NCBI GenBank assembly: GCA_964373795.1
Contig: CAYJVY010000003.1
Coordinates: 68,798-100,797 of the forward strand
Direction: 5' to 3'
DNA length: 32,000 bases
From: an uncultured archaeon
Lineage (GTDB): Archaea; Iainarchaeota; Iainarchaeia; Iainarchaeales; DATDZZ01
The notes beneath the pieces are model-generated. The model was not told the origin of the DNA. It did not search any database and saw only the letters and a list, made by a program, of their open reading frames with translations. The position numbers and the translations under genes were made by a program. Positions 2,201-30,818 of the stretch are shown piece by piece (the stretch's first letter is position 1; the number at the start of each line of letters is the position of its first letter).

Positions 2201-3841
2201 TTAGTTTTTCTTTAAAACTGTTTTCATGATTTCAGAAAATGCTGGGCGAGCAATTGTTACTGCAAGAATTGCTCCGGAAATTGTTACAATTGCAAATCCA
2301 ACTAGTTTTCCTAATCCTACTCCAAATAAAATTATTGGAAGCATTGTTGCAATAACAGTGACTGTTGCAACAATTATTATGAAGAAAGCTTTTTTTGCTC
2401 TTTCAATTAAAGTGTATTCTCCTGCTATTTCTCCCCCTCTAAGTAATTCATCTGTTATTAATATTTGATGGTCAACTCCTGTTCCAACTACTGCTAGGAT
2501 TCCTGCAACAGATCCCAAGTCTAGATTCCAATTAATTAGTGAAGCAAATCCTAGAATCATTATTACTTCACTTATTCCAGTTAAAATAATTGGAATTGCA
2601 AGTTTTAATATTCTGTATCTAATGAATAAAACTAATGCTACTACTAGAATTGCAAGTGCTCCAATAAATATTGCACTGCTAAGTGATTCTTTTCCAAATG
2701 TTGGAGAAATTGATTCTTTTGAAATATCCTCTACTCCTATTGGAAGGCTTCCGGTTTCTAATACAACTCTTAAGCCTTCTAATTCTTTTCTAGAACTTTC
2801 AGCAGTAGCAGAAAATCCTCTAATAACTAAAGAAGAGTTAACTTGAGAATCTTCAACTCTTGCAATAAATGGTTGATTGCCTGTAATATCTGGATTTAAA
2901 GAAATAATATTTCTTGCGCCTGTGGCAGTCCAAATCCAGGGCTGTGGAGGAATTTCTTTAACTTCTTTTACAATGAATCCAATTTCTTTTAATTTTTCTT
3001 TAATGCTTGAACTAACGCCTGAATGAATTAATGCGTATTTGTTTTCTTTTTTTGCCTCACTTAATTCTTGTACTTGTTGAAGACTTAGATTCGCGTCTAC
3101 AAGGAATTCTTTTACTCCTGAATTTAATAATAATTCTTCAATTCGTGTTTGAGGAGGAATTCCTTCAGAGTCAATTCCTGTAAACAATTCGTTTTTGTTT
3201 TTTTCAAAAACTGTTCTAGGAATAATTAAAACACTTTTTTTTGGCTTGTCAATAAAGAAATATGTTTCACTGCAATTAAATGCGTTTCCAGAAGAAGGAT
3301 CCAATCCAGTTAAAGTGCATTTATGAAATATTTCTTTTGAAAACTTTTTAGCTCCGTCTTCAGTTAAAGTGAAAGGTAGAATCCAAACAAATTGATTTCC
3401 TTGAGGAGCAAATCCATATCCTTTTTGAGGGTCTCCTATTACTCTGAAAATATCTTCTCCTTCTAAAATTTTTTTTCCTTCAAGCATTACTTCAAATTTC
3501 CCTTGCGATAAAATTAGTGTTTTAAGGCTTTCAACTGTTTGAGGATCTGTTTCAGCTATTTGAGCTTGAATAAATTCAAATCCTTGGGTTTCATTTCCAA
3601 TTGTGGTTACTCTTGCATCTTTTAATCCAGTCCAATCCAATCTTTTTTGAATAGTGTTTTGAATTTGATTTGCTAGTTCCACGTCTTTTATTGGCTCAGA
3701 TAATTGAATTAAGAAAAGCGTTCCTCCAGAGAAATCAATTCCAAAACTAATTCCTTTAAAGAAAATTAATCCTAAAGCAATTAATACGACTGCAACCCAT
3801 ACAATGATTTTCCAATTCTTTGCAATTTTTTCAAAATTCAT
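2201..3841 (-). CDS. secD: Protein-export membrane protein SecD
   Basis: 546 aa: N-terminal TM, a large extracytoplasmic domain, and a C-terminal 5-TM bundle with the SecD-like motif VGTGVDHQILITDE. The start overlaps the secF stop by 4 nt (ATGA), as in archaeal secF-secD operons. Confidence 0.85.
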   Translation of the reverse strand: MNFEKIAKNWKIIVWVAVVLIALGLIFFKGISFGIDFSGGTLFLIQLSEPIKDVELANQIQNTIQKRLDWTGLKDARVTTIGNETQGFEFIQAQIAETDPQTVESLKTLILSQGKFEVMLEGKKILEGEDIFRVIGDPQKGYGFAPQGNQFVWILPFTLTEDGAKKFSKEIFHKCTLTGLDPSSGNAFNCSETYFFIDKPKKSVLIIPRTVFEKNKNELFTGIDSEGIPPQTRIEELLLNSGVKEFLVDANLSLQQVQELSEAKKENKYALIHSGVSSSIKEKLKEIGFIVKEVKEIPPQPWIWTATGARNIISLNPDITGNQPFIARVEDSQVNSSLVIRGFSATAESSRKELEGLRVVLETGSLPIGVEDISKESISPTFGKESLSSAIFIGALAILVVALVLFIRYRILKLAIPIILTGISEVIMILGFASLINWNLDLGSVAGILAVVGTGVDHQILITDELLRGGEIAGEYTLIERAKKAFFIIIVATVTVIATMLPIILFGVGLGKLVGFAIVTISGAILAVTIARPAFSEIMKTVLKKN

Positions 3842-8208: not shown

Positions 8209-9411
8209 TTATTTGTTTACTTCTTTTTCAATTACTTCTCTAATTTTTTTTGCATCTAAATCCAATTTAATGAAACGTGTTTGTCCTTTATATCCTTGTC
8301 CAGAATTAGTTGTAACAATTAATCCATACATTTCTAATTCACTAACATATTGCCTATACCATCTAGAACTTATGGGATTTTCTTGATATCTTTTTGCAAG
8401 AGAAGAATATTCATTGAACACTTCTCCTGAAAAAACTAATTCTTTTTCTTCTTCCCCAGTTATTTTAGTTAAACCGCTTGAACGCATGCTTACATTGGCA
8501 ATTGCAAGTAAAACTAATTGTTCTTGAGTTGGAAGAGTTGAAATCATGTTAAAAATAATTTCTTCTTCAACTTTTTGCTTTGCTTCTAGTACTTGGACTT
8601 CCGAAACTTTTTGCAAAGAATTATTATCTGCTTGTTCTCCTGCTCTAAGTAAAAGCATTACTCCTGTCCTAGCATCTCCAGATTCTTTTGCTGCAATTGC
8701 TGCAGCTAAATTTATTGCTGGTTGTTCAACAGTGTTTTCCTTAAATGCTAGTTTAACTCTTTGTTTTAGTATTTCAGTTAATTCTTCTGCATTATATGGA
8801 GGAAAAACCATTTCATGTTCGCATAAACTGCTTTTAGTTCTAGGATCTAATCTGTCTTTAAACATTAAATTATTTGATACTCCTACAATTGAAATGCTTC
8901 CCTTTCCTATTTCATCGTTTGCTCTTGTAAGAGAATAAATTAATTCATCTAAATCCTTTACCTTGTCTATTTCATCTAAAACAATTATTACATCTCTTTC
9001 TGTTTCCTTCACAAATTCAATTAATTTTTCTAAAACAAATCCAGAACTATATCCTAAAAAGTTTTTATTAGGATAAAACTCGTTAACACATTTCAATAAA
9101 GCCCTGTATTTAGATGAATGGTTTCTGCAATTAACATAACAAGTTTTTATGTTAACCTTATTTTTTTCAGCAAATTCATTTAATTGCGATAAAACAAATT
9201 TAGTTACACTTGTTTTACCAGTTCCTGTTTTACCATATAGAAAAAGATTATTAGGTTTTTTTCTATTTAACACAGTTCCAAGAACTGAAGTAATTTCTTT
9301 TATTTGATTTTCTCTAAAAGGAAGTTCATTTGGAATGTAATGAGGCATTATTAAATTTCTGTCCTTAAAGACTGTTGGTTTTTCTAATTCGGCCTGAAAA
9401 ATATTTTCCAT
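8209..9411 (-). CDS. cdc6: Orc1/Cdc6 replication initiator (AAA+ with C-terminal winged helix)
   Basis: 400 aa with the conserved N-terminal FRENQ region, Walker A GKTGTGKT, Walker B VLDEID, sensor regions and a C-terminal winged-helix region. Its stop codon directly abuts the hel308 stop codon (8206-8208 / 8209-8211). Confidence 0.9.
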   Translation of the reverse strand: MENIFQAELEKPTVFKDRNLIMPHYIPNELPFRENQIKEITSVLGTVLNRKKPNNLFLYGKTGTGKTSVTKFVLSQLNEFAEKNKVNIKTCYVNCRNHSSKYRALLKCVNEFYPNKNFLGYSSGFVLEKLIEFVKETERDVIIVLDEIDKVKDLDELIYSLTRANDEIGKGSISIVGVSNNLMFKDRLDPRTKSSLCEHEMVFPPYNAEELTEILKQRVKLAFKENTVEQPAINLAAAIAAKESGDARTGVMLLLRAGEQADNNSLQKVSEVQVLEAKQKVEEEIIFNMISTLPTQEQLVLLAIANVSMRSSGLTKITGEEEKELVFSGEVFNEYSSLAKRYQENPISSRWYRQYVSELEMYGLIVTTNSGQGYKGQTRFIKLDLDAKKIREVIEKEVNK

Positions 9412-9480: not shown

Positions 9481-12400
9481 TTAGATATTTCTTGGAATTT
9501 TTTTTTGCTCTACTTTTTCTTCTTTTTTTCTTGAATAAAATTTTATTCCTATAATTAAAACAATTAAAATTACTAAAGGGTATAATGCAAGAGGGATTTG
9601 CAAATTTTTCGCATTCTTATTCAAAGAAAGAAGTGAGGTGCCTGCATTTGCATACTTTAATGCATCTAAATATTTTTTTTCTTCCAAGTTTTTTTGAGCT
9701 TCTTCAATTATTTTTTTTGCATCTTCTTTTGGATTTTCTTTTAATAAAAACTCTGCTTGCTTAACTTTACCTATTGCACTATTCTTAATCGAATCTTTTT
9801 TACTTTCTAATTGGCTTTTAATTTCTTGAAGTCTTTTAATTGAATTTTCAATTTCTTTAGCATCTTTTTCATTTGAAGCTATTTCTAAAAATTTGTTTTC
9901 ATTAAAAAGTGATTCAATTTCATTTAACTTGTTAGTATTTATTTTGTTAATGATTTCTTTTGATTCTCTTTTAAAGTAGCTTAATTCTTGCTTGCTTAAA
10001 GGAATATATTTTGCCAATTCATTTAATTCATCTTTACTTAAACCATCGAAAAGATCTTCAAATTCCTGAATTAAGTTTTCAATTTGCCTATTACTTATTA
10101 ATTCATTTAACTGTCTTGCGTTTAAAATAATTTTTTCAGATTTAGATTTTAATTCATTTTTTAAATGATTTTCTAAATTTATTTTTTCTTTTGAAAGCGA
10201 ATTCAATAATTCATTTGCTTCAAAATATTTTTCTTCATTAAACTTGGTTAAAATTTCTTCTTTCATTGAATTAATTTTTTTTTCTTCATTGCTTGGAGGG
10301 TTTTCAAGTTTTGAATTGTTTATTTTTTCAAAAATAGTGTTTAATTCATTTGTTGTGAAAAGATATTTTGCCATTAATTCTTTTTTTATTTTTGGGAAAG
10401 ACTTACTTTGCATTAAACTTTGGATTTCTAAAAGTATTTTCTTTTCTTCAAGAATTTTTTGGTTTAATTCATTTTCTAAAGCTGAGTTAAATTTTTCTTT
10501 TAATTCGTTTAAGTATTGCTTTAATTCAATTGTTTTATCCTTCATATTAGTTTTTTCTAATTCATTTAATTCTTTTTCTAAATAATTAATTTGTTCTAAT
10601 GCTTCTTTTTTTAATGAATTAATTTCAATTAAGCTTTTTTCATAATCTGTATTTTTTTTTGAAAGGTCATTTATCTTTGATTTTAGTTTTTCAAGTTTTG
10701 AGATTTTTTCTTTATTATCTTGAATTTGCATTAACTTATTTAGTTCTTTTAATTCATTTAATGCCTGTTCTTTTACCTCTTTAAAGTCCGATAAAATTAG
10801 TAAATTAACTTCCATTTCAATTTCTTTCTCAACTTTTTCAATTAATTTATCTAAATTTTCAATTTTTTTATATAGTGTTAGAGTTATTTCTTCCTCTTTA
10901 TTCAAGTTATTTAAATTGAATTCAATTTTGTTTGTTGTTTGATTTAATTTAATACTTTTTCCGCTTTCGTTAAATAGCTCTACTGTGATTAGAGTTTCAT
11001 TTAAATTGAATTGATTTAATGAAATAACTGTGTTTTCAATATTTAATGGTAAATTGTTTTTGATCTTTATTTCTTGAACTATTTCAAATTCTTTTTCATT
11101 TAATTTAATAATTTCTTCTTGGGGTAATGACACTTTTATTGGGTTTAATATATAATAGTAAATTGAAATTATTTGATTATCTTTTGGTTTTTCAATTAAA
11201 AAACTTATTTCATTTTCTTTTAACCCGAACGGAATTTTTTTGTTTTCAGAATAAATACTTACTTCATTAAGTAAATCGATTGGTTGAATTAACTCTGTTG
11301 AAACAACTGCTTTTTCTATTTCTCTTAATAGATTTATTTTAATTTCTTTTAAGATTAGCGCTTTTTTTTCACTTGCATTTAAAACAATTGTTTTGATTTC
11401 TGAAACATTTATCTCATTAAATTCTTTCACTGTTAACTCTGTTTGATTTAAGGGCAATTCGTTTAATGTAACCTCAATTTTATTGTTTGAAATGCTGGTT
11501 TTAATTATATTTTGAGTTTTACTTACAATTTCTGTTTCATTTACTTTATTTAATGGAATTGAAATATTTATTTCTTCATTTATCTGTTCATTAAAAGGGT
11601 TTTTTACAACATATTTTGTTAAGACTTCAATTTTTTTATCAGTTTTAAATAACTCGTTTGATAAACTTTGTATTTCTATATTTTCTTCTAAAAATATTTT
11701 TAGTTCTTGAATTAATTCAATTCTTATTTCATTAAATAGTTTAAGTAACTTATTTTTTATTTCAAGTTTGTTTTTAATAATTTCTTCAACTTCATTGCTT
11801 GAAAATAATTCATTGAAATAATTTATTTGAGTTTTAAATTTTAATGCTTTTGAAGTTGAAAGTGTTCCAAGTAATTCTAAATAATGGTTTGTTTTTTTAA
11901 GCAAGTCTTTTAATTCACTTAAATCAAAACTTGAATATGCATAAAACGTAATGTCCTTTTTCAGTTCAATACAATAATTTTTTCCATTAAAATATTCTTT
12001 ATTTTTTTGAATTAATTTTAAGTTATTCAATCTTTCAAAAAATATGTTTTTTATTTCAGGATTTTTTAATAATTCGTTAACTTCATTTAAGCATTTTTCA
12101 AATCCTTCTTTTTCGTTTACTTCAAATTCTGTGAATTGATTTATAGCTTTTTTGAAGAGTTTAAAATCTTCTACTATTGGTTTGCATTGAATTAATTTTT
12201 CTTTTTCAGTTTTCGTTTCATTGAATTTAATTATTTTGCTTGTTAATTTGTTTTTTAATTCAATTACTTCTATTCGGTCAATTTTTTCTTTATTTATTTC
12301 ATTACGGATAAAGTTAGCTCTTGAATTGCATAAATCAATTAATTCATCTGTTAATTCATTTGAGTAAAAAAGAGTTTTATCATTTAATAACTTTAATTCA

Positions 12401-13623
12401 CTGTTAATGTTTTTTAATTCAATTACTTTTTTTCCATTTGAAATATTGTTGAAATAATTCTTGTTTAACAATTTGTTTAACTGTTTTTTTAATTCGTCCA
12501 ATTTTTCAAAATTGTTTTGCTTAAATTGATTTATTTCATTCAACTCAAATTTTTGTGTTTGAATTTCTTTTCCTTCCTGCAATAACGAGATTAGTGAAGA
12601 AATGAATTCTTCATTAAAGCTTTGATAACTATTTGAATCTAATGCATTTAATTGTGTTTGAATTGATTCAATTAAGAACTTGTTTTCATTAATTAACTCA
12701 TTTGTTTTTTCTTTTAAATTTTTCTTATTTTTAGCAATTGTTTTAATTAAATCAATAAATTTTTCAGTAGCGGAATTACTTGGAGAGGCTAATGAATCAA
12801 ATAAACTGAAAAATTCTGATGGATTTGCTTTTCCTAGTAAAATGTTTCCTTGAACTGTTTTATCTAAAAAATTAATTTTATGTACTAATGCAAAAGCTGA
12901 GTTTTTAATTATTGCAGCAAAAGGATTATTCTTTAATAGAATTGAAAAAATTGTGTTATCTATTTCCGCGAACACGTCAATTAAAGTGAATTCTTTTACA
13001 GTTCTAGTTGAATCAATTGCTTGAATTAATTTATTTAATTCATTTGATTTGAAAAAATATAATCCAACAAATGTTTTAGAATTTTTATTTCCATTGAATA
13101 AATCATTTAAATTATTAATTAAGTCTAAATAAGAGTCAAAAATTGGTTCTTCTTTTATTAAATTAATTTCCTGTAATTCAAGTTCTTGAATCTCTAAAAC
13201 AATTATTTCTAATGCAATTAAATTTAATTTATTTAATTCTTCAATTGCTTTATTTAAATATGAAATTGATTCGTTTGCATGAAAGGAAAGATTTGAAACA
13301 AATCTTTGGTTGCATTCTTTGTTTATTTCGTTTAAACTTGTTCTAATCTTGTTAAAATAAAACCAAGAAAATGCCAAAGAATTTTTATACAAACCAATTT
13401 TTTGATTTAATGCTAAGGAAAACTCGCTTAAATCATTTTCAGGCAATAATTCATTAACCTTATTAAAACAGGCTTCTTTTGATTCACAAAAAGGAATGGA
13501 TGTTGAAGGAAAAGAAGTTAAACTCAAACAAACTCTTCTCTGAGAAATACTTAACTCATTTACTGGATCAATGCAGCCAATCAAGAAAAGAAAAGACAGA
13601 AATAAAAAAATCTTTAGCTTCAT
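9481..13623 (-). CDS. Giant (1380 aa) coiled-coil surface protein with an N-terminal lipobox-like signal peptide and a C-terminal TM anchor; function unknown
   Basis: Uninterrupted 4.1-kb ORF. The N-terminus MKLKIFLFLSFLFLIGC resembles a lipoprotein signal (LIGC). Long K/E/N/L/I-rich heptad-like stretches flank a beta-strand-like central part (about aa 670-930). The C-terminus has a hydrophobic helix LALYPLVILIVLIIGIKFY followed by a basic tail. Confidence 0.8.
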   Translation of the reverse strand: MKLKIFLFLSFLFLIGCIDPVNELSISQRRVCLSLTSFPSTSIPFCESKEACFNKVNELLPENDLSEFSLALNQKIGLYKNSLAFSWFYFNKIRTSLNEINKECNQRFVSNLSFHANESISYLNKAIEELNKLNLIALEIIVLEIQELELQEINLIKEEPIFDSYLDLINNLNDLFNGNKNSKTFVGLYFFKSNELNKLIQAIDSTRTVKEFTLIDVFAEIDNTIFSILLKNNPFAAIIKNSAFALVHKINFLDKTVQGNILLGKANPSEFFSLFDSLASPSNSATEKFIDLIKTIAKNKKNLKEKTNELINENKFLIESIQTQLNALDSNSYQSFNEEFISSLISLLQEGKEIQTQKFELNEINQFKQNNFEKLDELKKQLNKLLNKNYFNNISNGKKVIELKNINSELKLLNDKTLFYSNELTDELIDLCNSRANFIRNEINKEKIDRIEVIELKNKLTSKIIKFNETKTEKEKLIQCKPIVEDFKLFKKAINQFTEFEVNEKEGFEKCLNEVNELLKNPEIKNIFFERLNNLKLIQKNKEYFNGKNYCIELKKDITFYAYSSFDLSELKDLLKKTNHYLELLGTLSTSKALKFKTQINYFNELFSSNEVEEIIKNKLEIKNKLLKLFNEIRIELIQELKIFLEENIEIQSLSNELFKTDKKIEVLTKYVVKNPFNEQINEEINISIPLNKVNETEIVSKTQNIIKTSISNNKIEVTLNELPLNQTELTVKEFNEINVSEIKTIVLNASEKKALILKEIKINLLREIEKAVVSTELIQPIDLLNEVSIYSENKKIPFGLKENEISFLIEKPKDNQIISIYYYILNPIKVSLPQEEIIKLNEKEFEIVQEIKIKNNLPLNIENTVISLNQFNLNETLITVELFNESGKSIKLNQTTNKIEFNLNNLNKEEEITLTLYKKIENLDKLIEKVEKEIEMEVNLLILSDFKEVKEQALNELKELNKLMQIQDNKEKISKLEKLKSKINDLSKKNTDYEKSLIEINSLKKEALEQINYLEKELNELEKTNMKDKTIELKQYLNELKEKFNSALENELNQKILEEKKILLEIQSLMQSKSFPKIKKELMAKYLFTTNELNTIFEKINNSKLENPPSNEEKKINSMKEEILTKFNEEKYFEANELLNSLSKEKINLENHLKNELKSKSEKIILNARQLNELISNRQIENLIQEFEDLFDGLSKDELNELAKYIPLSKQELSYFKRESKEIINKINTNKLNEIESLFNENKFLEIASNEKDAKEIENSIKRLQEIKSQLESKKDSIKNSAIGKVKQAEFLLKENPKEDAKKIIEEAQKNLEEKKYLDALKYANAGTSLLSLNKNAKNLQIPLALYPLVILIVLIIGIKFYSRKKEEKVEQKKIPRNI

Positions 13624-16901: not shown

Positions 16902-17872
16902 GTTTTTTCTCCAGCAGTTTTTTCAAAATCCCTAATCTTCTTTCCAGTCAAATTAATGAATACATCCTCTAATTCTGGTTCACGAATATGAGAAGACTTA
17001 ATTTCATACTTGGATTTTCTAATAAAATCAGTTATCTGAGTAACCTTAGACAAAGAAACCTCTTTCTGAAAAGAAATAATTAATTGATTCCCTAAAATTT
17101 TTCCATCATCAAATCCGACAACTACCTTCAAAGAATCCAAAAGCAATTCATCAAAAGGTTTATCCAAATTCAATATAACAATTTTCTTTCCGCCATATTC
17201 TTGAATTAATTTCTCAGGCGAGCCTTCAACCAAAATCTTTCCCTTGTTCATTATAGCAATTCTATCACACAATTCTTGAGCTTCATCCATGTAATGAGTA
17301 GTTAAAATCATTGACTTTCCATGCTTTTTCAATTCCTTTATTTTATCCCAAAACATTGCTCTAACACTTGGATCTAGTCCAACAGTTGGTTCATCCAAAA
17401 AAATTATTTTCGGATCATGAATCAAAGCCAAACCAATATTAACAAGCCTCTTATACCCTCCAGATAAATGCTCAATTTTTCTTTCCTCAAACTGCTTCAA
17501 ATTCAGCCATTCAAGCAAAAACTCTACTCGTTCAATTAATTTATTATTAGGAATATCATACAACCTGCCAAAAAACAAAAAATTTTGCTTAACAGTAAAC
17601 CCCTGATAACAAGCAATTTCTTGCGGAACAACTCCAATAAATTTATTAAAAAACTTGAAAAAAAATCCAACCTTTTTACCCAAAACATAAATATTCCCAG
17701 AAGAAGGCGAACTCAAACCACAAGCAATTTTAGCCAAAGTAGACTTGCCTGCTCCGTTAGGGCCAAGCAAACCATAAATCTCATTCTCATTTAAATAAAA
17801 ATTAGAACTCTCTAAAGCAACAAACGAGCCAAACTTTTTTGAAACATTTTCAATTCTTAAAACTTCAGTCAT
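16898..17872 (-). CDS. ABC transporter ATP-binding protein (ABC-2/DrrA-like)
   Basis: 324 aa with Walker A GPNGAGKST, signature LSGGYKR, Walker B IIFLDEPT and the H-loop THYMDE. A GGTGA Shine-Dalgarno-like motif lies 4 nt upstream, at the edge of the GC-rich island. Confidence 0.9.
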   Translation of the reverse strand: MTEVLRIENVSKKFGSFVALESSNFYLNENEIYGLLGPNGAGKSTLAKIACGLSSPSSGNIYVLGKKVGFFFKFFNKFIGVVPQEIACYQGFTVKQNFLFFGRLYDIPNNKLIERVEFLLEWLNLKQFEERKIEHLSGGYKRLVNIGLALIHDPKIIFLDEPTVGLDPSVRAMFWDKIKELKKHGKSMILTTHYMDEAQELCDRIAIMNKGKILVEGSPEKLIQEYGGKKIVILNLDKPFDELLLDSLKVVVGFDDGKILGNQLIISFQKEVSLSKVTQITDFIRKSKYEIKSSHIREPELEDVFINLTGKKIRDFEKTAGEKT

Positions 17873-17876
17873 TCTC

Positions 17877-18036
17877 TCACCCGTCGTTCAGCCGTGCAAG
17901 GTTCAGCCCTTGAAGCGCCGTTCAGCCGGCGAGGCTGAGTGCCCACGTGGGCATCGCGCTTGCCGCGCGAGACTACAGCTGAAGGGTCACGTGACCCCTC
18001 GCACTCGACGGGCGTGACCGCGAGCAAGGCTGAACA
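17877..18036 (+). repeat. GC-rich mosaic repeat island, copy A (reference orientation)
   Basis: Hand count gives 102 G+C in 150 nt (68%) for 17881-18030, against 19 in 60 (32%) for 17821-17880. GTTCAGCC occurs three times (17886, 17901, 17920) and its complement GGCTGAAC once (18028). Perfect palindromes are GCCCACGTGGGC (17941-17952) and GGGTCACGTGACCC (17984-17997). There is a hairpin TCGCGC-TTGCC-GCGCGA (17954-17970). A 31-nt block (17943-17973) matches 30739-30769 with 3 mismatches. Confidence 0.8.
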
Positions 18037-18145
18037 CAATGCTTTGCATTGAACAACATTCCAGCTAATTAAATTATTCACGCTAAAAGTGTGAAACAAT
18101 TATGTACTACTTTTACTAAAGCTTATTGTTAACCATGTTTGGAAA

Positions 18146-18444: not shown

Positions 18445-19488
18445 TCAATTTTTTGCAATTGACAGGCTATCAAAATCAATTTTCAAATCCATGTCTTTCA
18501 AATCAGGGCGGACAAGCAGGCAAACCCTTGCAGTCTCAAATTCATCCCTGAAAAAATACCCGCTTTCACTAGCAATTTTTTTCGCAAATTCTCGAACATC
18601 GCCCATGGAAGGCATTTTATCTTCTTCTAATTTCAATCTACTTGGTCCAACCCAAGAATAACCTTTAACTTCAACAAACATTGGATTTCCTCTTTTAATT
18701 ATTGGTCCCCATTCTTTTTCATAAGACATATTTTTTCCTTTAACAGCAGTAACTCGAATAACAGTTCTAGTATTCATTTTAGCCATTACATCCAATGACT
18801 TCATCATTTTCTCCCAAGAATCACTTTCTTGAGGTCTATTTAATTCAATATGCACTTGCTTGTTAGGAGAATCAAAACTCATATACAACTGAGTAGGCAA
18901 AGGAATTTTCTCCAATACCTCTGGTCTAGAACCATTAGTAACTAAAAAAGTAGTAATCCCTTTATCATGATATGCTTGAATTAATTCAGGTAACTGCTTA
19001 TATAAAGTGGGCTCTCCACTCAAAGAAATTGCAACATGCTTAGGAGTATGACTTGCAAGCCATTTCTCTTTATCCACATACTGGCTTCCGCCCAAACCAG
19101 AAAGCTGTTGATTCTGCCTCTCAATTGATTCCTCAACCAATTCACTTACATCGTCTTTATACTCGATTTCGCGATTAGGAATAACTGTCCTCCAACAATA
19201 ATCACAACCATAATTACACACAGCAGTAATAGGAGTCATTTGAATACATTGATGACTTTGAATGCCGTAAAACTTCTGCTTATAACAAGCAGTTCCGCCA
19301 GAAATAGAACTCCTAGTATAATGACAAGTCTTCACAGCTCCTAAAGCTCCAACTCTAGCATATTGCTGTCTTCTCAAAACCTTCTCCAAACCCTTAGGCA
19401 AGGTCTGAGGATCAGGCAAAACCTTTTTAGAATCCGAATTACTCTTATCTGAAATCTGAATTAATTCACTCAATTTCTCACCATTCAA
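18445..19488 (-). CDS. taw1: tRNA 4-demethylwyosine synthase Taw1/TYW1 (radical SAM)
   Basis: 347 aa with the radical-SAM cluster CNYGCDYCW and an upstream Cys cluster (CHYTRSSISGGTACYKQ). It is collinear with archaeal Taw1. The track start is TTG at 19488. An in-frame TTG at 19473 preceded by GGTGAG is an alternative start. Confidence 0.85.
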   Translation of the reverse strand: MNGEKLSELIQISDKSNSDSKKVLPDPQTLPKGLEKVLRRQQYARVGALGAVKTCHYTRSSISGGTACYKQKFYGIQSHQCIQMTPITAVCNYGCDYCWRTVIPNREIEYKDDVSELVEESIERQNQQLSGLGGSQYVDKEKWLASHTPKHVAISLSGEPTLYKQLPELIQAYHDKGITTFLVTNGSRPEVLEKIPLPTQLYMSFDSPNKQVHIELNRPQESDSWEKMMKSLDVMAKMNTRTVIRVTAVKGKNMSYEKEWGPIIKRGNPMFVEVKGYSWVGPSRLKLEEDKMPSMGDVREFAKKIASESGYFFRDEFETARVCLLVRPDLKDMDLKIDFDSLSIAKN

Positions 19489-19542
19489 TCGCCGTCTCGC
19501 GCGGCGTGCGCGAGCAACTATTTGGTCGGCTTCAAAAAGCCT
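19489..19542 (-). repeat. GC-rich repeat island, short copy D (inverted relative to copy A)
   Basis: It begins immediately next to the taw1 start codon. GCCGTCTCGCGCGGC (19491-19505) is the reverse complement of GCCGCGCAAGACGGC (30759-30773) with one mismatch. A 7-bp hairpin is CTCGCGC-GGCGT-GCGCGAG (19496-19514). A second small hairpin is GGCTT-CAAA-AAGCC (19528-19541). Confidence 0.6.
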
Positions 19543-20012: not shown

Positions 20013-21158
20013 TTATTTTAAATCCAAAAAAAGTTTTTTGTTCTTCCAGTCAATTTTTTTGACTGGATTAACTAAAATAATTCTTTTATCCACAGCCAAA
20101 TCAAACTTATACATAATCTCTTTTTCTGTTAAATTCTTTTCCATTCCTTTTTTAATTCCGTTAATTACTTCTTGTATAAAAGAATAATTTGAGTAAAGCA
20201 ATTCCCCTTTTTTAGTGAACTCTGCTTCTAATGCTTCAAACCTTTTTCTAGCCTGTTCTTGTTCTCTTAAACTGAATTCAAGTTTTTTCAATTCTTTTTC
20301 AAATTTTTCTTGAATTCCTTTTTTCTTATCAATTAAAACCGGTTTAGAATAAATCGAGTCAAGTGCTTCATTTAATTCCTTGAATTCTTTTTCCGACTTA
20401 AATGCCGTTAACTTTATTGGCACTAACACTTCTTTTTTGTCTTGCAATACAATGTTTGGTCGGAATTTTTTTAAATCAATTAAATACAACTCATTTATTT
20501 TTTCTTTTAATGTTTGAACTTGTTTTTCGTTTACTTTTTTTGCCTGCAAATTTTTTTCAATTTTTAATTGCAGTAAAATGTCTTCAACATATATTGGAGC
20601 AATATTTATTTCCTCAATTAAGGCTCGAATTAAATCTTTTTCCGAATTTGCTAAAACCTTTTTTAAGTCCTCTTCATTTAAAGTTAAAGGATTTAAGCCT
20701 CTAGAAGGAGGTAATTCATATTTAACATTCTTTTTCAATTCTCTGTCCTTGAATTTTTCTTTTCTAAATGGAAGCAAAATATTTCCTTCCCTGTCTAATA
20801 AAATTAAGTTTCCTTCTGCAAACAATTCAATTACTAAATTGAGTTCTTGAAATTCAATTAAAATAATTCTTTCAAAAGAGTATTGCTTTATTTCTTCAAT
20901 TTTTTTTCCAATTAAATGTTTTTTTAAAAACAATCCATATCCATGAGGAAAAGCCGGAGCTTCAAACTTGAATTCAGTTAAATAAATTACTGGATTTTTT
21001 TGCAAATTAATAATTAAATCTTTAGAGCCTTTTACAGTTCGCAGTTTGAATTTGAAAACGCTTTCCTCTACTTCTTGAATCTTGTTAATAAATGCCCCTC
21101 TAAGAAGAGGTTTGAGTTCTTCAACCAGGTAAGCCAGAGTTAAATTATTTAATTGCAT
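20013..21158 (-). CDS. NFACT-N domain protein (Rqc2/FbpA-like N-terminal plus coiled-coil region, no NFACT-R part)
   Basis: The sequence from MQLNNLTLAYLVEELKPLLRGAFINKIQE onward is the typical NFACT-N start. It is followed by a K/E-rich coiled coil. The track ORF extends to 21242, which would overlap the divergent CYTH gene. The ATG at 21156-21158 is the more likely start. Confidence 0.7.
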   Translation of the reverse strand: MQLNNLTLAYLVEELKPLLRGAFINKIQEVEESVFKFKLRTVKGSKDLIINLQKNPVIYLTEFKFEAPAFPHGYGLFLKKHLIGKKIEEIKQYSFERIILIEFQELNLVIELFAEGNLILLDREGNILLPFRKEKFKDRELKKNVKYELPPSRGLNPLTLNEEDLKKVLANSEKDLIRALIEEINIAPIYVEDILLQLKIEKNLQAKKVNEKQVQTLKEKINELYLIDLKKFRPNIVLQDKKEVLVPIKLTAFKSEKEFKELNEALDSIYSKPVLIDKKKGIQEKFEKELKKLEFSLREQEQARKRFEALEAEFTKKGELLYSNYSFIQEVINGIKKGMEKNLTEKEIMYKFDLAVDKRIILVNPVKKIDWKNKKLFLDLK

Positions 21159-21210
21159 TAATAAATGGTTTCTGAAAACAAATTTAAAGCCTTTCAATAA
21201 AGAATTTATA

Positions 21211-21762
21211 ATGCCAAAGACATGGAAGGAAACAGAATTCAAATTTCCAGTTCAAAGCTTTACAAGAATTAAAAAACTGCTTAAAAAGCTTAAAGCAAAA
21301 AGACTTGGAAAAGAATTCGAATACAATGAATTATTTGATTTTTCAGACAAACGATTGCGAAAAAAAAAGCAAGTAATAAGACTAAGAAAAGCTGGAAAAA
21401 ATTTTTTAACATTCAAGGGAAAAACAATTCATCACAATACTCTGCGGGTCAGAGAAGAACGCGAACTAGAAATAGAAGACTTCTACATAATGAAGTTTGT
21501 TCTTGAAAAACTCGGCTTAAAAAAATGGTTTGCCTATGAAAAATATAGGGAAACCTTTTACTTGAATGGAGCGGAAATTGTTTTAGATGAACTTCCTTTT
21601 GGCAAATTTATTGAAATAGAAGGCTCTAAAAGCATGGTTTTAAAAATAGCTAAGTCTTTAGAAATGGATTTAAAAACCGCTCTGAAAAATAATTACTTAG
21701 AATTATGGCAACAGATTTGTTTAAAGGAAAAGAAAAAATTTTCAGATTTATTGTTTAAATAA
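21211..21762 (+). CDS. CYTH-domain protein (triphosphate tunnel metalloenzyme / CyaB-like)
   Basis: 183 aa with an N-terminal ExExK signature (ETEFK) and alternating charged beta strands typical of CYTH tunnels. Confidence 0.75.
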   Translation: MPKTWKETEFKFPVQSFTRIKKLLKKLKAKRLGKEFEYNELFDFSDKRLRKKKQVIRLRKAGKNFLTFKGKTIHHNTLRVREERELEIEDFYIMKFVLEKLGLKKWFAYEKYRETFYLNGAEIVLDELPFGKFIEIEGSKSMVLKIAKSLEMDLKTALKNNYLELWQQICLKEKKKFSDLLFK

Positions 21763-24510: not shown

Positions 24511-24542
24511 TTTATTTTCTATTTCTTTTTTTTTCTTTTTTT
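24511..24542 (+). terminator. Oligo-T tract (candidate archaeal terminator)
   Basis: T9 (24526-24534) and T7 (24536-24542) runs lie about 35 nt downstream of the stop of the preceding + strand gene. Archaeal RNA polymerase typically terminates at oligo-T. Confidence 0.4.
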
Positions 24543-24559
24543 ACTATGGTTAACTGTTT

Positions 24560-24572
24560 TTCAGCCTTGCTC
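24560..24572 (-). repeat. 13-nt remnant of the GC-rich repeat family (copy F)
   Basis: TTCAGCCTTGCTC is the exact reverse complement of GAGCAAGGCTGAA at 18022-18034, the right edge of copy A. It lies in the intergenic region just upstream of the vapBC-1 promoter. Confidence 0.45.
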
Positions 24573-24625: not shown

Positions 24626-24835
24626 GTGTCTACTCTTACAGTTGAATTCAAAGGCGTTACAGATACTGTTCTAAATGCCTTGATTGAAAAAGGCTATGCA
24701 AAAACTAAGGCAGAAGCTTTAAGATATGCATTAATTCACTTAGGTGAAGAACTTGGATTGGTTGAACATAAGTTTCATGCCAAAACTGAGGAATACGCGT
24801 ATAAGGAAATAAAAGAACGATTTAGAAGGAATTAA
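24626..24835 (+). CDS. Putative antitoxin (small DNA-binding protein, possibly ribbon-helix-helix) paired with a PIN toxin
   Basis: 69 aa with a GTG start after GAGGTGG. A short N-terminal strand is followed by helices (TLTVEF...VLNALIEKGYAKTKAEALRYALIHLG). The stop lies 1 nt before the PIN gene start. The assignment rests mainly on context. Confidence 0.6.
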   Translation: MSTLTVEFKGVTDTVLNALIEKGYAKTKAEALRYALIHLGEELGLVEHKFHAKTEEYAYKEIKERFRRN

Positions 24836-24836
24836 A

Positions 24837-25217
24837 ATGTATATTGATTCAGATATTTTTTTTGCCTTAATTAAATTAAATGATAGGCATGCAGAATTTG
24901 CTAAAACAGTTTTTTCAAGAAATGATAAAAAATACACTTCTGTCTTAACCTTGGTAGAATTGGAGATAATTGTTAAGCGAGAAATAGACAATCATTTAAG
25001 CAAAAATATTTTTGAAAGATTCAAAGAGTTATTTCCAGATGTTGAAATAAAGAACTTAGATGAAAAAACTTTTTCAAAATCTTTAGAGTTAAGAAAAAAA
25101 TATAGTTTGGGTGTATTTGATTCAATTCATGCAGCAGTTGCTTTAAAATACGATAAAAGAATTGCTTCAACTGATCAAAGCTATGTAAAAATAAAAGAAT
25201 TGAAAATCATTAAATAA
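24837..25217 (+). CDS. vapC: PIN-domain ribonuclease toxin (VapC-like)
   Basis: 126 aa with acidic PIN residues in the expected order: YIDSD near the N-terminus, LVELEI, FDSIHAAVA and STDQSY. Confidence 0.8.
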   Translation: MYIDSDIFFALIKLNDRHAEFAKTVFSRNDKKYTSVLTLVELEIIVKREIDNHLSKNIFERFKELFPDVEIKNLDEKTFSKSLELRKKYSLGVFDSIHAAVALKYDKRIASTDQSYVKIKELKIIK

Positions 25218-25367
25218 ATTATTTTTTAATCAATCAATAAAAAATAATTTCCAAAAAAATTTAACCTAAAATTTGCAAGCAAGGAAAGATTGTCAAATGC
25301 CGTGAATCTGACTCATGTTTGTTAAATGCATTATTGATTAATTAGTACAAACCATTGTGCTTGATTA

Positions 25368-25502
25368 GGGAGACTTGTGCTTGCCACGCGTTAGCTCGTA
25401 TTCGTTGGTCGTTCTAGTCACCTCGCCGGCTGCGACGTCTCGTGCGTCGAGCACGGGGGCCGACGTCGGCCTTCAGCCTCGCCGGCTGAACCGCGTTTAC
25501 GA
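25368..25502 (-). repeat. GC-rich mosaic repeat island, copy C (right part inverted relative to copy A)
   Basis: The reverse complement of 25467-25494 reads CGCGGTTCAGCCGGCGAGGCTGAAGGCC. It matches 30712-30738 (CGCGGTTCAGCCCGCGAAGCTGAAGGG) and 17917-17940. Other elements are the perfect 14-bp palindrome GGCCGACGTCGGCC (25458-25471), the hairpin CGTGC-GTCGA-GCACG (25441-25455) and a CCTCGCCGGCTG duplication (25421 and 25477). The left part GTGCTTGCCACGCG...GCTCGTATTCG resembles the right end of copy B in direct orientation, so the island is mosaic. Confidence 0.8.
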
Positions 25503-25618
25503 CAATTGCTTTAAAAACCTTTTTTTCTTCAAGTAATTAAAATTTTGTTGAAAATCAACGGTTTTGAAATGCTGTTTTTAGGAGTTTATAAAAATTTTGA
25601 ATTTTTTGAGGGGGAGCT

Positions 25619-30673: not shown

Positions 30674-30707
30674 GCAAGAATAAACGAAAAACTACTTTAA
30701 ATTCATT

Positions 30708-30818
30708 TGCTCGCGGTTCAGCCCGCGAAGCTGAAGGGTCACGTGGGCATTGCGCTTGCCGCGCAAGACGGCAGCTGGAGGCCGACGTGGGCATCGCGCT
30801 TGCTGTATTCGGATACGC
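30708..30818 (+). repeat. GC-rich mosaic repeat island, copy B (same orientation as copy A)
   Basis: There are two tandem units with a 44-nt period: ACGTGGGCAT at 30741 and 30785. Unit 1 (30730-30773) and unit 2 (30774-30805) share GCTG-A/G-AGG...ACGTGGGCAT-T/C-GCGCTTGC. The hairpins are TTCAGC-CCGCGAA-GCTGAA (30717-30735) and TTGCGC-TTGCC-GCGCAA (30750-30766). Confidence 0.8.

Follow-up and report, generated by a model that had tools for sequence, protein, structure and literature searches.

GC-rich hairpin mosaics between the genes of an AT-rich archaeon: a probable family of dispersed palindromic repeats

Positions 30702–30818 of the 32,000-nt stretch of archaeal DNA analysed here (the window) form a short intergenic island, island B, with a GC content of 63% in a window whose overall GC content is 29.3%. 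The question raised by this locus is whether its hairpins belong to an RNA, to a protein-binding site or to a repeat maintained at the level of DNA. The island lies between the start of a pyruvate kinase gene (30673, minus strand) and an AbrB/MazE-PIN gene pair (30909 onward, plus strand), and is one of five intergenic islands in the window (57–175 nt, 58–65% GC), which also holds one 14-nt remnant. On balance, the islands appear to be copies of a non-coding, GC-rich mosaic repeat, specific to this lineage and scattered between the genes of an AT-rich archaeal chromosome; the repeat family is probably a selfish one. It is real, well delimited, apparently undescribed and of a familiar kind; an RNA gene or switch is not demonstrated by the island data. 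The DNA analysed comprised the window and flanking Logan contigs (5.4 kb on the left and 8.7 kb on the right), ∼46 kb in total.

Each copy can be read as a string of short self-complementary units, of which one type would be a hairpin displaying or containing the conserved octamer GTTCAGCC, another a 14-nt palindrome centred on ACGT, and another a 6–7 bp stem with a 5-nt loop and CGTC at its head. The last two are called module 2 and module 3 below, module 1 is a hairpin with arms TTCAGCC and GGCTGAA, and alpha is a 5-bp stem, variable but complementary, around the invariant loop TTCAGC. The islands and the remnant, in window positions, are as follows.

51–107: island I0, with a module 3 copy carrying one mismatch (60–76) and a possible alpha-like hairpin (76–91)
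17868–18042: island A, the longest copy, spanning from the ABC ATPase start (17872, minus strand) and its Shine-Dalgarno-like GGTGA to GGCTGAAC at 18028–18035
19475–19533: island D, a solo module 3 hairpin, CTCGCGC-GGCGT-GCGCGAG (19496–19514), with CGTC before the stem
24559–24572, plus strand: remnant TTTCAGCCTTGCTC, equal to the right end of island A, GAGCAAGGCTGAA, on the opposite strand (13/13)
25368–25509: island C, inverted relative to A and B
30702–30818: island B, the flagged stretch, a direct repeat of island A

Islands A and B match over 78 nt at 81% identity, island C is the A/B sequence inverted (84–86% identity), and D and I0 carry module 3 as a solo copy. This combination of direct and inverted copies, all of them intergenic, supports a dispersed repeat, and the copies are also mosaic, with hybrid palindrome arms, a collapsed module 1, a module 3 truncated at the edge of B, the solo modules of D and I0, and the remnant. 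The order of modules differs among A, B, C, D and I0. The octamer GTTCAGCC has six exact occurrences, every one within islands; three stand at the left of island A and one, inverted, at its right, as putative terminal inverted repeats (termini GTTCAGCCCTTG and CAAGGCTGAAC), and the ending of island A in inverted GTTCAGCC/GGCTGAAC words is a further point in favour of the repeat family. In B and C the word is present at one end only. The sequence of island B is identical in a Logan contig. No further copy was found in the 46 kb by blastn (word size 7), and no further island in the extra 14 kb of flanking Logan sequence.

An earlier, sequence-only reading had already divided this DNA into hairpin modules, and all of the motifs that it listed were found where it had placed them. 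The hairpins of the individual copies, beginning with island B, are given below.

30711–30728: alpha hairpin of B, (T)CGCGG-TTCAGC-CCGCG(A), with its 5-bp stem at 30712–30727, overlapping and excluding module 1 (30717–30735)
30736–30749: module 2, hybrid copy B1, GGGTC-ACGT-GGGCA, with a left arm of A2 type and a right arm of A1 type, pairing incomplete
30750–30770: module 3 copy B1, TTGCGC-TTGCC-GCGCAA, followed by GACG (CGTC on the other strand)
30772–30804: second 44-nt unit of B, with a collapsed module 1 (CAGCTGGAG), the hybrid palindrome B2 and a loop-truncated module 3 (TCGCGCTTGCT)
30780–30793: hybrid palindrome B2, GGCCG-ACGT-GGGCA
30805–30816: small terminal hairpin at the right edge of island B, GTAT-TCGG-ATAC, read from the sequence
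17897–17912 and 17916–17931: two alpha hairpins of A, CAAGG-TTCAGC-CCTTG and CGCCG-TTCAGC-CGGCG
17940–17953: palindrome A1, TGCCC-ACGT-GGGCA
17954–17970: module 3 copy A1, TCGCGC-TTGCC-GCGCGA
17976–17984: collapsed module 1 of A, CAGCTGAAG
17984–17997: palindrome A2, GGGTC-ACGT-GACCC
25440–25456: module 3 of island C
25458–25471: palindrome of island C, GGCCG-ACGT-CGGCC
25472–25490: module 1 of island C, with a degenerate second module 1 at 25422–25439
25495–25480, minus strand: alpha hairpin of island C, CGCGG/CGGCG with one mismatch
76–91: possible alpha-like hairpin of I0, AACCG-TTCGGC-TGGTT, the homology of the alpha-like part being uncertain

An extra small hairpin, GGCTT-CAAA-AAGCC, is present at the edge of island D (19528–19541), and the word GTATTCG of the terminal hairpin of B is also seen toward the left of island C, at ∼25398.

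The three perfect palindromes and two non-pairing hybrids in B that had been claimed for module 2 are confirmed, each hybrid having a left arm of A2 or C type joined to the A1-type right arm GGGCA. These hybrid arms, along with the differing module orders, fit the suggestion that copies have been shuffled or have recombined. For module 3, the AGAC tag (GTCT in inverse copies) that had been noted beside the stem does recur, but as part of a CGTC before the stem in C, D and B1 (in B1 as the reverse complement); the equivalent word is AGTC in A1 and is lacking in I0, among five copies only. Module 1 fared less well as a hairpin. Its motif is present, and at 17922–17938 it forms a stem of 6 bp (TCAGCC-GGCGA-GGCTGA), not seven, the seventh position being T.G; its stems are invariant, however, and are overlapped by the better-supported, covarying alpha around TTCAGC. 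What looks like a variable “loop” in module 1 is the 3′ arm of alpha, and its variability is thereby accounted for. Alpha and module 1 are mutually exclusive and have similar energies when compared with RNA and DNA parameters, alpha winning in B and module 1 in C, with a mixed outcome in A. In B, whichever strand is folded and whether RNA or DNA parameters are used, the minimum-energy structure is the alpha hairpin.

The self-complementarity of the islands is well above that of shuffled sequence. There are 21 perfect 5-bp stems with loops of 4–7 nt, as opposed to 2.4 in shuffles, with 21 reached by none of 2000, and three perfect 12-nt palindromes, as opposed to 0.17, with three reached by 1/2000. 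In three different hairpin types, changes on both sides have conserved the stems, which also supports the repeat family. Alpha is 96% paired when the I0 copy is included (n = 5), with four pairs changed on both sides and 0/500 shuffles as high, and 95% paired when it is left out (n = 4), with three pairs changed on both sides and 12/500 shuffles as high; the copies were collected by screening TTC[AG]GC occurrences for pairing flanks, so some selection bias attaches to these figures. For module 3 (n = 5; A1, B1, C, D, and I0), 96.7% of cells are paired and two pairs have changed on both sides, from C-G to T-A at pair 2 in B1 (C-G in A1) and at pair 4 in C, the exceptions being one G.U and one mismatch; 17/500 shuffles were as high, and controls with slid partners were 10–70% paired. 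The pairing-preserving double change between A1 and B1 that had been pointed out in this module is therefore genuine, in a small sample. For module 2 (n = 5; A1, A2, B1, B2, and C), 84% of cells are paired and four of the five arm positions have changed on both sides (15/500 shuffles), with the ACGT core and the G/C pair at arm position 2 invariant in all five palindromes. A MAFFT alignment of three copies misplaced a palindrome arm.

As the copies are few and related, these covariation figures are only suggestive and fall below R-scape grade, and module 1, with its invariant stems, contributes no covariation evidence. DNA palindromes can also gain compensatory changes mutationally, through template switching between arms (PMC8794818), so that covariation among four or five related copies is no proof of selection. 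The perfect copies contain Watson-Crick pairs exclusively, and the few wobble-compatible mismatches are found on both strands (3 vs. 1). Selection on a hairpin, as argued in the sequence-only reading, is thus partly upheld, in that the stems do pair through double substitutions, but selection at the level of RNA is not established, given the exclusively Watson-Crick pairing and the equal folding of the two strands.

A period of 44 nt had also been proposed for the modules. In B this stands, the units being 29/44 identical and the lag-44 identity of 0.47 being reached by 73/2000 shuffles, but in A the units share only 15/44, which amounts to the skeleton GCTGA-N-ACGTG, and TRF called no tandem array. 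The unit is present ∼1.7 times in B, with module 1 in both full and collapsed forms, and it is short because the second module 1 has collapsed to CAGCTGRAG. The earlier description was mostly accurate, then, with the 44-nt periodicity and RNA-level selection overstated.

Folding of each strand, which had been put forward as a check, separated the islands. Relative to dinucleotide shuffles, island A is more stable on both strands (z of −3.5 and −3.9), with a closing stem GUUCAGCC..UUG/CAAGGCUGAAC, and island C is marginal on the plus strand (−2.2), but island B is no better than shuffles on either (−0.85 and −1.27). In the minus-strand RNA of island A (z −3.9), the centroid equals the minimum-energy structure. 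The two strands of the islands fold about equally.

Searches for relatives were negative throughout. The pattern ACGTNNNCNNTCAGCNNNNNNGGCTGAAC, which fits all three full copies, matched GTDB representative genomes 26 times and JGI metagenomes 50 times, in each case in coding DNA or by chance in GC-rich sequence, and IMG/VR not at all; two further scans of IMG/VR yielded only unrelated isolated hairpins and coding DNA. Island A had no blastn match among plasmids and phages, a protein search with a translated island open reading frame (ORF), intended to catch spurious ORFs on other copies, gave no candidates, and the regions around the nearest pyruvate kinase and VapC homologues (seven sequences, 39–44% GC) are free of such islands. 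With no relatives in the collections searched, the family therefore appears to be confined to this lineage. Rfam 15 gave no match at gathering score, the best sub-threshold hit being chrB-a at 24.5 bits vs. a threshold of 43.9. Taken together, the direct, inverted, truncated, collapsed, tandem, and hybrid units, the intergenic scatter, the equal folding of both strands and the lack of an Rfam match are the signature of a mosaic interspersed palindromic repeat.

Several other identities were considered and set aside. No tRNA or tmRNA was detected in the islands, and no convincing protein-coding ORF. A CRISPR-like array was rejected, as there are no spacers, and so was an archaeal origin box, as the islands are unlike origin recognition boxes and lie 8–20 kb from orc1/cdc6. 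No bacterial-type intrinsic terminator was seen in the single stretch scanned, around island B.

How such a family might behave can be outlined. It would be maintained and propagated at the DNA level, either by transposition in trans or by recombination or gene conversion among copies via single-stranded DNA hairpins. The potential to form hairpins would be retained because the propagating machinery requires them, or because arm-to-arm template switching restores them. A unit may collapse, be cut short, turn up inverted or in tandem (the 44-nt unit of B), or recombine at a palindrome centre, and breakpoints at such centres would yield hybrid units such as those of B. Any effects on expression would be by-products, the hairpins of A and D lying in putative 5′ leaders beside the Shine-Dalgarno-like GGTGA, and B, C, and I0 abutting the promoter region.

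Certain observations weigh against a dispersed selfish repeat. The evidence comes from 46 kb of one genome, with five islands and one remnant only, and in these 46 kb there is no transposase or integrase, including no Y1 transposase. No flanking direct repeat is evident at the islands that would mark a target-site duplication, and terminal inverted repeats occur in island A only. The public collections searched hold no related sequence that would show spread, and covariation with a conserved loop would also be expected of a functional RNA or of a hairpin recognised by a protein.

The alternative that survives best, although it is unlikely, is a structured cis-regulatory RNA or small RNA, in which the islands would be transcribed and their hairpins would act as stabilisers or attenuators in 5′ leaders, or as a protein-binding UUCAGC-loop hairpin. 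Compensatory changes in three stems, including a covarying stem with a conserved loop, are what such an RNA would show, as is the well-defined fold of the minus-strand RNA of island A, and structured RNAs typically are GC-rich islands in AT-rich genomes. The positions of A and D also fit. The ABC ATPase (17872) and TYW1 (19488) starts, both on the minus strand, have GGTGAGA 5 nt upstream, which is Shine-Dalgarno-like, and the D module 3 hairpin lies ∼10 nt upstream of the GGTGA of TYW1. Islands A and D reach right to this sequence and are therefore probably transcribed within 5′ leaders. On the same strand, the Shine-Dalgarno-like leader reads GGTGAGA(G/A)A at 17873–17885 and 19489–19500, with start codons ATG and TTG; other genes of the window look leaderless, with a TATA-like box ∼25–30 nt upstream of the start.

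The remaining copies are less easily accommodated by an RNA. As the TATA-like boxes are read here, B, C, I0, and the remnant would lie 10–75 nt upstream of likely promoters, namely those of pyruvate kinase (B), the H+-pyrophosphatase (C), a B3_4 gene (I0), and VapB (the remnant), which would place B, C, and I0 outside the predicted transcripts. A TATA-like box and a VapB-like ORF follow the remnant at a distance of ∼20 nt. Orientation toward the downstream gene is inconsistent: the GTTCAGCC end points to the nearest gene start in A, B, and C (3/3; not significant), but module 3 of D faces the other way with respect to its gene. No common function links the downstream genes (ABC ATPase, TYW1, H+-pyrophosphatase, pyruvate kinase, and B3_4), truncation and shuffling have affected the copies, the fold of island B is no more stable than that of shuffled sequence, the wobble pairs have no strand asymmetry, and Rfam has no match, all of which speaks against an RNA.

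Quite unlikely is the possibility that the islands serve as cis elements in an archaeal system equivalent to those of the REP/RAYT or IS200/IS605 type, that is, single-stranded DNA hairpin repeats, domesticated or parasitic, in a DPANN-like archaeon. HUH endonucleases, which include rolling-circle Rep proteins, IS200/IS605 TnpA, and RAYT, recognise hairpin origins or nick sites. In that case the invariant TTCAGC loop on its covarying stem, or else the CGTC beside it, would be where an HUH or another nuclease, with its gene elsewhere in the genome, recognises or nicks the DNA, and cutting and rejoining at the ACGT palindrome centres would create hybrid units. Like HUH hairpin sites, the islands have a GC-rich variable stem that presents an invariant loop or adjacent word (TTCAGC or GTTCAGCC). 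Unlike them, they have no HUH gene nearby, and the loop is only 6 nt.

A double-stranded DNA protein-binding array, in which a dimeric regulator or chromatin protein would sit on the ACGT-core palindromes or on GTTCAGCC upstream of promoters, is decidedly improbable. The invariant ACGT core and G/C pair at arm position 2 of the five palindromes would suit such a protein, as would the exact recurrence of the octamer in six places and the location of 4/6 sites upstream of TATA-like boxes as read above. However, the arms vary freely but in a complementary manner, which preserves self-pairing and not a fixed recognition sequence, several unrelated hairpins per island exceed the needs of a binding site, and in a compact genome intergenic DNA is almost always near a promoter.

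Integron attC-like recombination sites of gene cassettes, an idea prompted by the toxin-antitoxin pairs beside B and C (a VapBC pair, ∼24627–25217, between the remnant at 24559 and island C, and the AbrB-PIN pair after island B) and by a size (117–175 nt) and imperfect palindromic structure like those of attC, are largely refuted and barely credible, as the core words occur in the order GTT...AAC and not RYYYAAC...GTTRRRY, with position 4 mismatched, neither an integrase nor a co-oriented array of cassettes is present, the neighbouring genes are of the housekeeping type, and no island of this sort lies beside the nearest VapC homologues of other archaea. The remnant and island C do bracket the VapBC pair with inverted GTTCAGCC/GGCTGAAC words, an arrangement that is absent from the homologous VapBC loci examined in other archaea.

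The chromosome that carries this putative repeat family encodes archaeal housekeeping proteins in the window, among them TYW1 (radical SAM and wyosine domains), H+-pyrophosphatase, pyruvate kinase, and NFACT, as well as Orc1/Cdc6, a Hel308-type helicase, a NOG1-like GTPase, SecD/F, an ABC-2 transporter and several PIN/AbrB toxin-antitoxin pairs. The best homologue of the pyruvate kinase in a search of 5.8 billion proteins is only 50% identical, its named top matches are metagenome-assembled genomes (MAGs) of Micrarchaeota, Altiarchaeota, and Woesearchaeota, and the nearest named VapC homologue is from a Diapherotrites MAG. This suggests that the host is a deep-branching, DPANN-like archaeon for which the databases hold no close relative. 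The Orc1/Cdc6 gene is at 8209–9411 on the minus strand. The cumulative GC skew has its minimum near 21000–21250 (∼21.2 kb), where gene orientation flips from minus to plus at a divergent gene pair, and could mark a replication origin region or merely gene-strand bias; islands occur on either side of it. An ORF of 1380 aa (9481–13623, minus strand), without a Pfam match, occupies the most AT-rich stretch of the window (18–25% GC) and is packed with degenerate internal direct repeats; its product may be a large coiled-coil or surface protein.

This DNA is also present in the Logan assemblies of three sequencing runs (ERR3478686, ERR4904390, and ERR4904391), and the window is therefore not an artefact of a single assembly; contigs from the three runs carry the same islands wherever these are covered. 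Three Logan contigs, each from a different run, terminate inside islands, at 17925, 17989, and 25449, the second falling at the centre of palindrome A2 and the third in the module 3 loop of C (contig L209, ERR4904391). These ends are only suggestive, as they fit extra genomic copies and poor coverage of GC-rich hairpins alike. Between contig L209 and the window there is a difference of 1 nt in the length of a poly-T tract (24534–24541), as well as one substitution in the VapB-like ORF, and the first 82 nt of island C are the same in both. With the contig slightly divergent and its part of island C identical, the island is therefore common to slightly different strains. Another contig, ERR3478686_475725, ends in the Illumina adapter AGATCGGAAGAGCACACGTCT (3402–3422, corresponding to 25343–25363 of the window), just before island C, and this end is an assembly artefact and not a sequence variant.

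The interest of the proposed repeat family lies in its clarity, as the contrast between GC-rich units and DNA of 29% GC makes this an unusually clean case in which copies are easily delimited, and a convenient one in which to ask how, in a reduced genome, such repeats spread without losing their hairpins. In practical terms, the islands coincide with the ends of short-read contigs, and they place very stable hairpins before at least two genes. None of these points is as yet evidence of a new mechanism.

Compared with known systems, the islands share features with several. The CGTC-tagged REP superfamily, with its REP dimers and BIMEs (PMC3733652; PMC2817692), likewise consists of GC-rich stem-loops with a 5-nt loop that form mosaics with other short motifs in intergenic DNA. 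Module 3, at 17–19 nt, falls at the short end of the 20–40 bp GC-rich stem-loops of REP size, and CGTC stands at the 5′ foot in 3/5 copies, with T-A as the first stem pair. The CGTC families, however, have 8–9 bp stems, A/T pairs at positions 1 and 2, a 4–5 nt loop and a CCA tail (PMC3733652), whereas module 3 has stems of 6–7 bp, T-A at position 1 in 4/5 copies, C-G at position 2 in 4/5 copies, and no CCA tail. Nor do the units alternate as head-to-head dimers in the manner of BIMEs, in which REPs are regularly spaced and alternate in orientation, being mostly co-oriented within an island (those of B, and A1 relative to B1, are direct). CGTC REP families are described in bacteria only. REPs bear an unpaired tetranucleotide, GTAG or CGTC, at one end and are present in many copies, those with GTAG along with a cognate RAYT gene; no RAYT was seen in the 46 kb here.

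BOX elements of Streptococcus pneumoniae have the structure boxA-(boxB)n-boxC, with a tandem module of ∼45 nt (PMC3049150). The islands resemble them as modular composites of <200 bp with predicted stem-loops, in intergenic or leader positions, and with an internal module of ∼45 nt that may be absent or in tandem; the 44-nt unit of B is a variable tandem internal module of this MITE- or BOX-like sort. There is no sequence relation, however, and BOX elements are not GC islands. BOX also has defined terminal inverted repeats and target-site duplications, whereas the islands have inverted termini in A only and no duplications were seen.

The palindromic GC clusters of AT-rich yeast mitochondrial genomes are mobile, are constrained in their stems, and merge and shuffle (PMC4478555). 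Clusters such as GC42 are likewise short GC-rich palindromic hairpin elements in the intergenic DNA of a very AT-rich genome, with constrained stems and a tendency to merge or shuffle into composite clusters. The islands differ in belonging to an archaeal chromosome, in having no sequence similarity to these clusters, and in the absence of flanking direct repeats, and the mobility of GC42 is known from population data (PMC4478555), whereas that of the islands is putative. By behaviour, the islands find their closest analogues in the yeast mitochondrial GC clusters, BOX, and REP/BIME mosaics, with membership in none of these established, and the family would add an archaeal, possibly DPANN, case to the series formed by REP/BIME, BOX, Correia, RPE, and mitochondrial GC clusters.

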